Part shown: one piece after another, positions 1,762-6,392 of the stretch
How positions within the stretch are numbered: the stretch's first letter is position 1
How the letters are laid out: every line of letters begins with the position of its first letter
Assembly (NCBI GenBank): GCA_049964835.1
Contig: JBMFWW010000006.1
Span: 1 to 33,364, forward strand
Origin: Candidatus Micrarchaeia archaeon
Lineage (GTDB): Archaea > Micrarchaeota > Micrarchaeia > Micrarchaeales > CABMGC01
Length of the DNA: 33,364 nucleotides
Direction: 5' to 3'
Notes under the pieces: model-generated
Database searches by the model: none
What the model saw: the letters and a program-made list of their open reading frames with translations, nothing else
Told to the model about the DNA's origin: nothing
Position numbers and translations under genes: made by a program

Positions 1762-2622
1762 TTAAATTATTAAAAGTATTATGTTTCCCAAAAGAAGAGA
1801 AAGTATAATTCCTATTAGTATAAAAGCGGCAAGAGGAGCAGCATTTCTATATACAGGTATTTTACGCCTGACATCTTTAATATCTGAAATAAGTTTTTTT
1901 GTTGCTAGCCTACCAAAAAACTTTGATTTTTTTTTGAAGTATGCTATCTCTGATTTTGTCATTAGATTAATTGCTATCATATCTTCTGGAACCAGCTCGT
2001 TTGGATTTAATTCGGTTACCATTCTGTAATTTATAAGTTTTTCATAGATAATTAGAATAGACGAGAGTATAGCTATTAGTAAAAGGAGTATTACACCTAT
2101 AATTGAAACTTTCAATATAACCAAAAGCATTACTGCTAAAATTATATAAGTAATAATCATTAATAATGATTTCTTTATGTTTTGTTTTTCTATTTTGAAC
2201 TTCTTTTCTATTTTTGTTCTCTTTGCAAAGATTAGATAATAGATTAGTATTATTACTACTGAAGAATATCCAGACGCAATAAATACTGAAAAAATAAATG
2301 GCAAACCTAATTGAGGTATATTTTTTATAAGATAAGGAGTTGTTTGAATTGGTATTAAAAGAGTTATGGCTACAAACTCAAAGATATCTCCACCACCAAC
2401 AAAACCTTTTTCATAAGATATATAACCTAAAAATGCTATTAACGCCGCTAAAAATAAAATGTAGTAAGGATCTCCGCCTAAAAGCACTACCGCTACTAAA
2501 GAAATTACTATACTTAAATATGCAAAAATGTTTGGTATTTCTCTTTTATTAAAAAGATCAAAGTAAGCGTACATTCCAGCTATTAAAATTAATATTATTA
2601 TTCGAATAATTTCTCCATACAT
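1762..2622 (-). CDS. Prepilin/preflagellin peptidase (A24 family, FlaK/PibD-like)
   Basis: Polytopic membrane protein with YAYFDLFNKREIPN (first Asp), GGGD motif and C-terminal P-LAAFILIG. Confidence 0.85.
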   Translation of the reverse strand: MYGEIIRIIILILIAGMYAYFDLFNKREIPNIFAYLSIVISLVAVVLLGGDPYYILFLAALIAFLGYISYEKGFVGGGDIFEFVAITLLIPIQTTPYLIKNIPQLGLPFIFSVFIASGYSSVVIILIYYLIFAKRTKIEKKFKIEKQNIKKSLLMIITYIILAVMLLVILKVSIIGVILLLLIAILSSILIIYEKLINYRMVTELNPNELVPEDMIAINLMTKSEIAYFKKKSKFFGRLATKKLISDIKDVRRKIPVYRNAAPLAAFILIGIILSLLLGNIILLII

Positions 2623-2671
2623 AAAAATCTAAATTAGAAGTTTACCTTATATGCATATACCGATTTGTAGA

Positions 2672-2686
2672 AAAGATTTAAATATT
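2672..2686 (+). promoter_or_regulatory. Putative BRE/TATA box for the leader-wHTH transcript
   Basis: AAAGA-TTTAAATA about 25 nt upstream of 2710; AT-rich background limits certainty. Confidence 0.4.
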
Positions 2687-2709
2687 AATGCTTTATTAAT
2701 TTGTAAATA

Positions 2710-2879
2710 TAGAAAGAAAGTTGTTGCAAATGAAAAATGCTATCAGGTGTTTAGTTGGTTTCGTACACACATCACCAGTAGCTATAGCAACAAACTTTTG
2801 CAAGTACAATATAATGTTGTACTGGCTTGTTGCATAAGGGCTCTTTCTAAAATCTTTTTATCATGGTGCTCTTATGCAA
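2710..2879 (+). ncRNA. Putative structured cis-regulatory leader RNA (riboswitch-like translational switch)
   Basis: Nested helices 2710-2717/2842-2849, 2718-2727/2787-2797 and 2803-2809/2817-2823, plus an alternative 12-bp helix 2830-2841/2868-2879 covering the ATG. Confidence 0.55.
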
Positions 2880-3206
2880 ATAACTAGTGTTATATTTAAA
2901 AGTGCGGAAGATGTTAAAAGACTTAAAGAAAAGGAAGTTCTACTTCTATCTGAGATAGGTCTTGATCAGATACCAGCTGCAACAAACTTTGTAGAATTTT
3001 TCGCTCAGAGTTATAGTATGTCTCAGAGCGGAGTATGGTACACGCTTAAGAAGCTTAAAAAAGAGAGGGTGGTGGATTTTACCGAAAAGGGCGAGGCCTA
3101 CAGGCCTCTTGCCCTTACGGATAATGGTTTAAAGATTCTTAGAAGTATAATGCTTGATGAAAAAAGAAAAATTATGAGCAGACCTTCAGTAGTCGGGGGT
3201 AGATAA
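2874..3206 (+). CDS. Winged helix-turn-helix protein (putative regulator)
   Basis: 110 aa; SQSGVWYTLKKLKKERVVDF...LALTDNG fits a wHTH recognition helix and wing; SD GGTG at 2865-2868. Confidence 0.7.
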   Translation: MQITSVIFKSAEDVKRLKEKEVLLLSEIGLDQIPAATNFVEFFAQSYSMSQSGVWYTLKKLKKERVVDFTEKGEAYRPLALTDNGLKILRSIMLDEKRKIMSRPSVVGGR

Positions 3207-3207
3207 G

Positions 3208-3522
3208 TTGAAAAGAAGAAATTGTGCAGATACTTTTAGAACGTTAAATAAAAGGGATTTGTAGCTTTTTGAGATAAAAGTGCTAATGAAAAAATTAAAA
3301 ATACGTAAAGGAAGTGATATTACATATAGTGATTTGGCTAGAAGGATAGGAAATCCAAAATCATGTAGAGCTGTAGGAAACGCATTGAAGAAAAATTCTC
3401 TCCATTAATAATACCATGCCATAGAGTATTAAAAAATCTGGCGAGTTAGGTAATTATGCTTTTGGAGAAACAAAGATGAAAGGGCAATTTTGGAGAATGA
3501 AGGTGCGCTTTCAAGTTATTGA
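3208..3522 (+). pseudogene. ogt: Methylated-DNA-protein-cysteine methyltransferase pseudogene
   Basis: Fragments FEIKV...IRKGSDITYSDLARRIGNPKSCRAVGNALKKN / PLIIPCHRV / SGELGNYAFG / LENEG in changing frames; TAG at 3262-3264 and several frameshifts. Confidence 0.88.
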
Positions 3523-6305: not shown

Positions 6306-6392
6306 GCGGGGGTGGCAGAGTATGGTCAAATGCGCAGGACCGAGGCTCCTGTAGTTTTAGAGCTTGCGTGAGTTCAAATCTCACCCCCCGCA
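6306..6392 (+). tRNA. tRNA-Leu(GAG)
   Basis: GCGGGGG/CCCCCGC acceptor stem, CAGGA-CCGAGGC-TCCTG anticodon arm, long variable arm, GTGAG-TTCAAAT-CTCAC T arm. Confidence 0.93.

Follow-up and report, generated by a model that had tools for sequence, protein, structure and literature searches.

RNA-unfolding translational coupling is described in the accessible part of PMC12548453 for rpmI-rplT of Escherichia coli (+52 nucleotides, nt) and for the coat and lysis genes of phage MS2, and the same part presents translational coupling in Archaea as hardly studied mechanistically. The system reported here lies in a window of 33,364 nt (contig JBMFWW010000006.1 of assembly GCA_049964835.1) from a Candidatus Micrarchaeia archaeon, in which positions 2710-2879 probably belong to the 5′ leader of a gene encoding a winged helix-turn-helix (wHTH) protein. 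It resembles the two described cases in that a putatively inhibitory helix, here called H3, joins the start region of the downstream gene to an upstream open reading frame (ORF), the translation of which, we propose, opens the helix; as in rpmI-rplT, the stop and the start are tens of nt apart, namely 18-44 nt in the loci compared. It differs from both in its host, a member of DPANN, and in its upstream cistron, which has only 28-50 codons and specifies an almost unconstrained peptide, and which thus looks like a dedicated leader and not like a real gene.

Bacterial leader-peptide systems offer a second comparison. Attenuation of the resistance genes ermC and cat, as well as plasmid replication control by tap-repA of R1 and repY-repZ of ColIb-P9, likewise places a short leader ORF and the next gene on one mRNA, with a hairpin masking the Shine-Dalgarno (SD) sequence or the start codon of that gene; where the ribosome stands on the leader decides access. 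These systems work by drug-induced stalling and alternative hairpins, or by a pseudoknot, whereas here no alternative partner was found for the sequestering arm, no stalling motif is evident, and in 61 of 72 loci this arm itself contains the stop codon. Expression platforms of riboswitches also place a helix over the start codon and the SD edge of the regulated gene; unlike them, the present locus has no conserved aptamer, Rfam class or competing helix, and its anti-start strand lies inside an ORF. To our knowledge, few cis-acting RNA regulators have been described in archaea, and post-transcriptional control is poorly charted there. Ribosome profiling of Haloferax volcanii revealed short ORFs in 5′ untranslated regions (UTRs) that are called 'reminiscent of' upstream ORFs (uORFs) or of genes for leader peptides, and in the accessible part of that report such hints are all that suggests leader-ORF or uORF control in archaea (PMC10117724). 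The Haloferax ORFs, which are comparable to ours in being short, in 5′ UTRs and within a few nt of the next gene or running into it, were detected experimentally, and no conserved RNA structure or mechanism is given in that part of the report (PMC10117724), whereas here comparison of sequences gives strong evidence for the ORF and the helix. Within a limited collection, full-text searching turned up no report of a leader ORF or an RNA element from Micrarchaeota.

H3 occupies positions 2830-2879 of the plus strand. Its 5′ arm, TTGCATAAGGGC (2830..2841), takes in the final sense codon of the upstream small ORF (sORF) together with its TAA stop; its 3′ arm, GCTCTTATGCAA (2868..2879), contains the ATG of the wHTH gene (2874-2876); and the loop between them (2842..2867) carries an A-run (2849-2852), a T-run (2855-2859), and the wHTH SD, GGTG (2865-2868). 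The arms form 12 base pairs (bp), including one G-U, and the minimum free energy (MFE) structure adds an inner A:U mini-helix within the loop. Our family survey started from 76 loci (L016-L045, L046-L090, and L009, the row of the unpublished genome G060 being left out), of which L060 was dropped because the script failed to place its wHTH start, so that 75 loci were analyzed. In a MAFFT alignment of their positions -72..+12, which was not fitted to structure, the 12 H3 pairs were 84.3% paired, against 27.6-56% when the partner was slid by 1-3 columns; double-changed cells numbered 71, against 19.1 in shuffles (0/500), and the covariation score was 0.292, against 0.184 (0/500). The helix over the ATG at 2874, which had been drawn in an original prediction made by a model from the letters of the window, is thus borne out as a conserved and covarying element. 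At the nine core pairs, G-U or U-G combinations occur 76 times and A-C or C-A combinations 16 times; this strong excess indicates that H3 pairs as plus-strand RNA and is not a symmetric DNA site.

Within the genus, H3 is 93% paired in seven leaders. The H3 segment folds at -18.0 kcal/mol in this genome (53 nt, 37 °C), with a z-score of -6.76 relative to shuffled sequences, and its mean z over the 75 loci is -4.36, values below -1.5 being reached in 73 of them. When full leaders were folded from the predicted transcription start site (TSS) to +30, the MFE structure paired the wHTH AUG with the arm carrying the sORF stop in 61 of the 72 loci, and the median probability of being paired was 1.0 for the AUG and 0.67 for the SD. 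The first base of the sORF stop lies in the H3 5′ arm in 61 of 72 loci (59 of them in the same alignment column) and 2-9 nt 3′ of it in the other 11. From stop to wHTH start the spacer measures 18-44 nt (median 33; 72 loci), with 36 nt between the sORF stop and the wHTH ATG in this genome. The position profile of the 75 loci is A-rich at -27..-21, rises to T in as many as 61 of 75 loci at -20..-12, and is G/T-rich, with GGTG, at -11..-6.

The sORF (2730..2837, plus strand) has 35 codons followed by TAA (2835-2837) and encodes the peptide MKNAIRCLVGFVHTSPVAIATNFCKYNIMLYWLVA; the ORF caller lists an ORF at this place from TTG 2721. Its predicted translation-initiation region, AAGTTGTTGCAA (2718..2729), stands where relatives have an SD-like GTG or GGTG. 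What had been described as a long non-coding stretch therefore holds a conserved 35-codon ORF. In the five closest regions, the sORF has 34-35 codons and ends at the TAA within TTGCATAAG, and all gaps inside 2730-2837 are 3 nt long in the MAFFT alignment. Across the survey, an ORF of at least 28 codons that starts with ATG at least 8 nt after the TATA box and stops 9-80 nt before the wHTH start was present in 72 of 75 loci, against 10.8 expected from dinucleotide shuffles, with lengths of 28-50 codons (median 36). Two of the exceptions, L082 and L085, have a 33-codon ORF that starts with GTG and ends in the H3 arm; in the third, L090, the second paralogue in G063, the sORF is broken into 11 and 9 codons and a short ORF still ends in the arm. 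L060, outside the 75, has a normal 33-codon sORF and H3. The GTG starts, the frameshift of L060 and the peptide motifs mentioned below were read by eye from the sequences.

Several features point to translation of the sORF in this frame. Internal gaps measured 3 or 6 nt in 38 of 40 cases among 35 nucleotide-aligned pairs of 65-97% identity, and 40 of 72 loci have an SD-like GTG in the interval -14..-4 relative to the sORF ATG, compared with a fraction of 0.08 of background windows. The peptide itself, in contrast, appears nearly free to vary. Mismatch rates at codon positions 1, 2, and 3 were 0.198, 0.193, and 0.201 in the 35 pairs, and the ratio of nonsynonymous to synonymous differences (pN/pS) was, for 14 pairs each taken from a different clade, 0.77 in the sORF frame, the shifted frames giving 0.95 and 0.97. 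A protein-guided ratio of nonsynonymous to synonymous rates (dN/dS) of 0.58 (versus 1.01 and 0.94) was set aside as biased, because the pairs had been picked and aligned by peptide similarity. Relative to neighboring proteins, the peptides are enriched in Cys (9.5x), Trp (3.5x), and His (2.8x) and depleted in Glu (0.21x) and Leu (0.53x), a composition that seems close to that of unselected codons, and neither Pfam nor NCBIfam has a family that they match. Of the 72 peptides, 56 end in Ala, and TAA is the stop in 65; both features are dictated by the GCATAA of the H3 arm. A frame, a start, and a stop that are kept around a nearly free peptide are the signature expected of a regulatory leader ORF, and we infer that the sORF is translated and is not a conserved protein.

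Two further observations concern the sORF sequence. It starts with ATGCA(A/G) in many relatives, Gln being the second residue in 28 of 72, like the ATGCAA of the wHTH gene, and with ATGAAA here. A (T)ATAG(C/G) motif, noticed by eye, recurs in frame in the middle of the sORF in this family and in its sister family, reading GTAGCTATAGCAAC here (2779-2791) and TTATAGGCAGCG in the sister family.

A second hairpin, H2 (2800..2826, plus strand), lies inside the 3′ part of the sORF and is made of AGTACAAT and GTTGTACT, closed by GC/GC. It is part of the MFE structure and 92% paired in the seven same-genus leaders, with one double change and several G-U changes. A hairpin with z below -1.5 directly precedes H3 in 30 of the 75 loci, against 8 of 75 control segments taken inside the wHTH gene, and the hairpin sequences at this position are unrelated between clades. 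H2 is real but not universal.

Upstream of the sORF, a predicted leader promoter (2664..2685, plus strand) combines TTTGTAGAAAAG, which resembles a B recognition element (BRE), with the TATA box TTTAAATA (2678-2685). The usual spacing of archaeal TSSs is about 26 nt from the center of the TATA box, which would place the start of transcription at 2706..2712 on the plus strand. The original prediction had put a TATA-like box about 25 nt before 2710, and a consensus box does stand there and recurs in most of the 75 loci, where the consensus AAAAGATTTAAATA lies, with 0-2 mismatches, 160-250 nt ahead of the wHTH start, and the promoter is invariant across the five closest genomes. The 21-mer was rejected as a locus-specific element, as the same consensus precedes another gene of this genome (L002); AAAAGATTTAAATA is, by its sequence, a putative generic strong promoter.

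The intergenic DNA that holds these elements is 268 nt long and single-copy in the 806-kb genome, as judged from a genome-wide sequence search; a repeat or mobile element was ruled out, matches elsewhere in the genome being only short and AT-rich or promoter-like. It is found at 70-73% identity in four of the ten same-genus genomes searched (G001, G002, G004, and G008), where the gene order is also the same, with a membrane protein of 285-289 amino acids (aa) encoded on the left on the minus strand and a protein of about 110 aa on the right. The invariant blocks in a MAFFT alignment of the five closest regions are the promoter TTTGTAGAAAAG(A/G)TTTAAATA, the block TCACCAGTAGCTATAGCAACA, and both arms of H3.

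We consider it more likely that this region is the 5′ leader of the wHTH mRNA, acting through a translated leader ORF, than that it is a ligand aptamer, and we favor, as the probable mechanism, an RNA-unfolding translational coupling in which translation of the leader ORF melts H3 and unmasks the wHTH start. Transcription would begin about 25 nt after the BRE/TATA box, near 2708, and would have to cover both cistrons. Ribosomes would initiate at ATG 2730 and read the 35-codon ORF, the peptide sequence being of little importance. At rest, the last sORF codons and the UAA (2830-2841) would be paired with the wHTH start region (2868-2879), burying the AUG and part of the SD and presumably inhibiting initiation. 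A ribosome that ends the leader ORF would hold the 5′ arm in its mRNA channel, so that H3 would be melted during elongation or termination there. Once opened, H3 would leave the wHTH start free for a second ribosome, or for the same one re-initiating 33 nt downstream, and how much of the regulator is made would thereby follow the flow of ribosomes along its own leader. Sequence comparison shows that the ORF is conserved, that H3 is conserved and covaries, and that the stop codon falls in its arm; translation of the sORF, the joint transcript, and the inhibition of initiation by H3 are inferred.

Several points weigh against this coupling mechanism. All the loci are related by descent, so that the counts make the independent support look larger than it is. 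The peptide is under weak selection, and translation is deduced only from the frame, the indels in multiples of 3 nt, the start context, and the stop position; in this very genome the sORF has a poor SD, GTTGTTG, which is neither GTG nor GGTG. The spacer of 18-44 nt from stop to start is long for re-initiation, and coupling efficiency usually drops with distance, according to the accessible part of PMC12548453. H2 is limited to 30 of the 75 loci. Finally, many transcripts could end ahead of the wHTH gene if the T-run of the loop acts as an archaeal oligo-T terminator, and a leaderless wHTH mRNA that escapes H3 could arise if the A-rich box at -27..-21 serves as a weak internal promoter.

Among the alternatives, the one that best withstands these data is leader-peptide attenuation, in which pausing of the ribosome on a signal, such as amino-acid supply, a drug, or a nascent peptide with its ligand, would set the state of H3. 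A short ORF, hairpins, and a sequestered start together form the layout of bacterial translation attenuators, and H2, where it is present within the sORF (30/75 loci), could be a pause site. The rise in Cys, Trp, and His codons (9.5x, 3.5x, and 2.8x) might be read in the same sense, as might the presence of Cys, Trp, and Pro in 68, 58, and 70 of the 72 peptides and a loose central motif seen by eye, [MST]P..V/I.A in this family and IGS.S...TP..HLAA in the sister family. The enriched residues are, however, what near-random codon use would give; sensor codons do not occur in tandem, the peptides diverge strongly, and neither the pN/pS of 0.77 nor the equal mismatch rates at the three codon positions indicate more than a weak constraint. 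Moreover, no conserved alternative pairing was found for the H3 5′ arm, which leaves no classical two-state switch. We regard attenuation as possible but rather unlikely.

The sORF might instead encode a functional micro-protein, for example one acting with the wHTH protein or modulating it, or a small peptide of the membrane, with H3 doing no more than fixing the ratio of the two products. The retention of the ORF in two families could be explained in this way, as could the pN/pS of 0.77, somewhat below that of the shifted frames (0.95 and 0.97), and the apparently better conservation of the sister-family peptides (MQ..L..W....IGS.S......TP..HLAA). Yet changes are not in excess at third positions, matches to Pfam and NCBIfam families are lacking, and the composition is unlike that of real proteins of these genomes (Glu 0.21x, Leu 0.53x, Cys 9.5x). 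It is the H3 arm that encodes the best-kept residues (C-terminal ..A or HLAA), so that RNA pairing explains their conservation. A micro-protein is, in our opinion, an unlikely explanation.

Still less probable is a device acting at the level of transcription, in which the T-run of the loop would terminate transcripts into a short leader RNA, perhaps a small RNA, and read-through would determine the wHTH level, or in which an internal sense or antisense promoter would operate. The fixed distance of the T-rich (up to 61/75, -20..-12) and A-rich (-27..-21) segments from the wHTH ATG would suit such a device. So would the reverse complement of the loop (2842-2867, minus strand), which with its (A)AAAAAGATTT resembles the BRE half of the consensus promoter: at most four mismatches to the 14-mer AAAAGATTTAAATA were found on the minus strand of the H3 loop in 20 of 75 loci, against 4.6 expected from shuffles. 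This BRE-like minus-strand AAAAAGATTT could be an antisense promoter or just the A-run and T-run of the hairpin, which may do no more than lengthen H3 by an A:U helix; on neither strand is the TATA half conserved. Covariation between the sORF end and the wHTH start, on the other hand, requires both to be on one RNA, and the SD GGTG conserved before the wHTH ATG would be needless for a leaderless mRNA.

MarR/ArsR-like regulators often bind palindromes near their own genes, and since the gene product has a fold of this type and H3 is a 12-bp inverted repeat, H3 as RNA, or the inverted repeat as DNA, could be bound by the wHTH protein, which would amount to autoregulation, or by another factor. 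The half-sites, however, are separated by widely varying distances (18-44 nt from stop to start), and the 76 G-U against 16 A-C combinations, with arms that change by compensatory pairs, fit pairing of plus-strand RNA and not a symmetric DNA site. RNA binding is not the norm for the wHTH fold. Such a binding site is therefore, in our estimate, highly improbable as an explanation of H3.

The original prediction saw in the region a ligand riboswitch or thermosensor, with an aptamer closed by 2710-2717/2842-2849 and a platform competing for 2830-2834. All the helices that it listed are found in this genome, including the 8-bp closing stem of TAGAAAGA (2710-2717) and TCTTTCTA (2842-2849), a P2 helix of AAGTTGTTGC (2718-2727) and GCAAC-A-AACTT (2787-2797), and the complementary AGTACAA (2803-2809) and TTGTACT (2817-2823), and the platform helix, H3, is real. 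The 170 nt from 2710 to 2879 fold on the plus strand with an MFE of -46.6 kcal/mol, against a mean of -33.9 for shuffles (z -3.58, 0/200 as good); the minus strand folds less well (z -2.29, 4/200 as good). For 2710-2849 alone z is -1.76 (10/200 as good), and it is +0.76 for the 5′ 79 nt of the leader, against -6.76 for the H3 segment; averaged over the 75 loci, z is -0.51 for the 5′ part, taken as the stretch between the TSS and the H2 region. The MFE structure consists of three consecutive hairpins (2716-2799, H2 at 2800-2826, and H3 at 2830-2879), and the closing stem is absent from it. The fold signal comes only from H2 and H3; the folding better than shuffles holds for the whole 170 nt and fails for their 5′ part.

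Conservation gives the same picture. In the seven same-genus leaders the closing stem is 53% paired, P2 64%, its outer half failing, and an inner GGTG/CACC pairing 46%; an inner GCTA/TAGC pairing reaches 89% and barely varies. Covariation, which would have been expected of the whole element, is seen in H3 in two families, whereas the closing stem and the aptamer helices are unconserved, so that the nested aptamer is not supported. As to the competition for 2830-2834, the H3 5′ arm pairs with upstream leader sequence, the sORF start ATGCAG among it, no better than with shuffled leaders (mean duplex z -0.03, with values below -1.5 in 7 of 75 loci). With no better-than-chance upstream partner for this arm and no structured 5′ part, we see neither an aptamer nor a two-state switch. 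No riboswitch class of Rfam matches 2710-2879: at gathering score, nothing in the window is matched except a tRNA-Leu at 6306-6392, and at E ≤ 10 the interval 2500-3000 yields just four snoRNA or miRNA matches of 12.7-19.4 bits, far under their cutoffs. This tRNA-Leu (GAG) is the sole RNA gene of the window according to ARAGORN and Rfam, and ARAGORN finds no tRNA at 2710-2879. Since the supposed aptamer is an ORF whose frame is kept, and since H3, at -18.0 kcal/mol, is too stable for a likely thermometer, a riboswitch or thermosensor appears largely refuted by the lack of conservation and we give it almost no credence.

Coming back to coupling through a translated leader, we followed the arrangement beyond the genus by searching an H3 covariance model in the own genome and in a sample of the order. 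In the own genome, the sole accepted site is 2801-2885 (54.5 bits); a match of 26.6 bits at C1:135684-135774 lies inside a long ORF resembling a class-I aminoacyl-tRNA synthetase and was judged to be due to chance. In the order sample, the model matched in 52 of 60 genomes of the family, in none of one genome of a second family, and, weakly, in 1 of 59 of a sister family, these tallies, as well as those below for the wHTH gene in the sister family and for the phylum, including the unpublished genomes G060 and/or G038. The wHTH protein was found in 73 of 81 family genomes (E ≤ 1e-5; tally including the unpublished G060) and its gene in 53 of 59 sister-family genomes. In the phylum sample, 44 of 46 and 59 of 65 genomes of the two families have the protein, and a single-protein query found it in 0 of 139 genomes of 26 other families of the phylum.

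All 20 sister-family loci examined have the same layout, with the promoter 170-280 nt upstream. An ATG-started sORF of 33-43 codons is present in 18 of the 20, whereas L165 apparently starts with GTG and L170 has a 60-codon ORF; a GGTG stands at -14..-4 of the sORF ATG in 10 of 18, against 0.01 in the background. The final ..GCATAA of the sORF lies in the 5′ arm of a helix, CCATTTGGCTGCATAAAC / GTTTATGTGGGCCAAATGG, that is longer and covers wHTH codons 1-5. In an alignment of 19 of the 20 loci with two loci of genus g2, the 18 pairs of this helix were 82.7% paired, against 34-55% when slid, with a covariation score of 0.221 against 0.146 (0/500). To judge from these alignments, the leader ORF and H3 arrangement is kept in two Micrarchaeota families. 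In several sister-family loci, a GCAGCGC can pair, by eye, with a GCGCTGC near the sORF start.

The leader unit occurs in one copy per wHTH gene. In genus g12 (G021, G063, and G078; loci L090, L054, and L089 with their partners), there are two paralogous leader-wHTH units, each with its own H3. At L060 (G091:C6), the wHTH frame reads ATG CAA GTG GGT CAC TAG and thus meets a stop at codon 6, apparently through one extra base in comparison with its relatives; this is either an assembly error or a broken regulator.

The gene behind the leader (2874..3206, plus strand) encodes a 110-aa winged-helix DNA-binding protein with a MarR/ArsR-like fold. Its identification as a wHTH protein in the original prediction is supported by a profile match, a structural model, and a fold search, which agree. 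A profile of 37 homologues matches PDB 2qvo (AF_1382, an uncharacterized wHTH protein; E 5.9e-8), and an AlphaFold2 (AF2) model with a predicted local distance difference test (pLDDT) score of 79.5 has MarR, MexR, RosR, SmtB, and CggR as its top Foldseek matches (TMq 0.54-0.67, E 7e-4 to 4e-3). No family scores above its cutoff in Pfam, where the best are HVO_A0114 (14.4 bits, cutoff 27.6) and HTH_24 (9.5 bits), or in NCBIfam (ArsR/SmtB, 12.5 bits, cutoff 55).

On the other side of the leader, a divergent gene (1762..2622, minus strand) encodes a 286-aa membrane protein homologous to the type IV prepilin (leader) peptidase family (Pfam PF01478 Peptidase_A24, E 3.9e-6, 27.7 bits, cutoff 26.5). 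The same peptidase family is represented by the nearest upstream ORF in 57 of 72 related loci (E ≤ 1e-3), and the homologue is a conserved neighbor, not a part of the mechanism. From this divergent pairing, the regulator may act on genes for pili or surface structures. The 'SPVAIAT' of the sORF peptide resembles, as we take it, the N-termini of archaeal pilins; the peptide was rejected as a substrate of the peptidase, as it has no hydrophobic helix after the motif, the motif is not kept in the family, and no Pfam pilin family is matched. Downstream of the wHTH gene, in the region 3207-3515, an ORF of 42 aa (3280-3408) matches positions 12-46 of the 81-position MGMT DNA-binding domain PF01035 (E 3.6e-10). 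Relatives (L010, L012) have a gene of 103-108 aa where this ORF stands, and it looks like a truncated remnant of an Ogt/MGMT-like gene.

These data make the locus a sharply defined case, backed by covariation, of one promoter, one leader ORF of 28-50 codons, and one helix from stop to start, an arrangement that surrounds a core regulator in an uncultivated DPANN order. It becomes testable whether RNA-unfolding coupling operates with archaeal ribosomes. In addition, before a structured 'non-coding' leader of a compact archaeal genome is called a riboswitch, one should look in it for a conserved short ORF. One may go further and suppose that this is an ancestral, order-wide, ribosome-gated leader in Micrarchaeota, the first leader-ORF control element in Archaea to be defined by comparative genomics, and that its regulator reports translation status; we put this forward as a conjecture that is more likely to be wrong than right by a good measure. 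If it were true, a wHTH regulator encoded beside a prepilin peptidase gene would report the translation status of the cell. In its boldest form, the speed of ribosomes over a leader rich in Cys, Trp, and His would read the amino-acid supply from the host and would thereby tune a regulator of cell-surface or attachment genes in an obligate symbiont.

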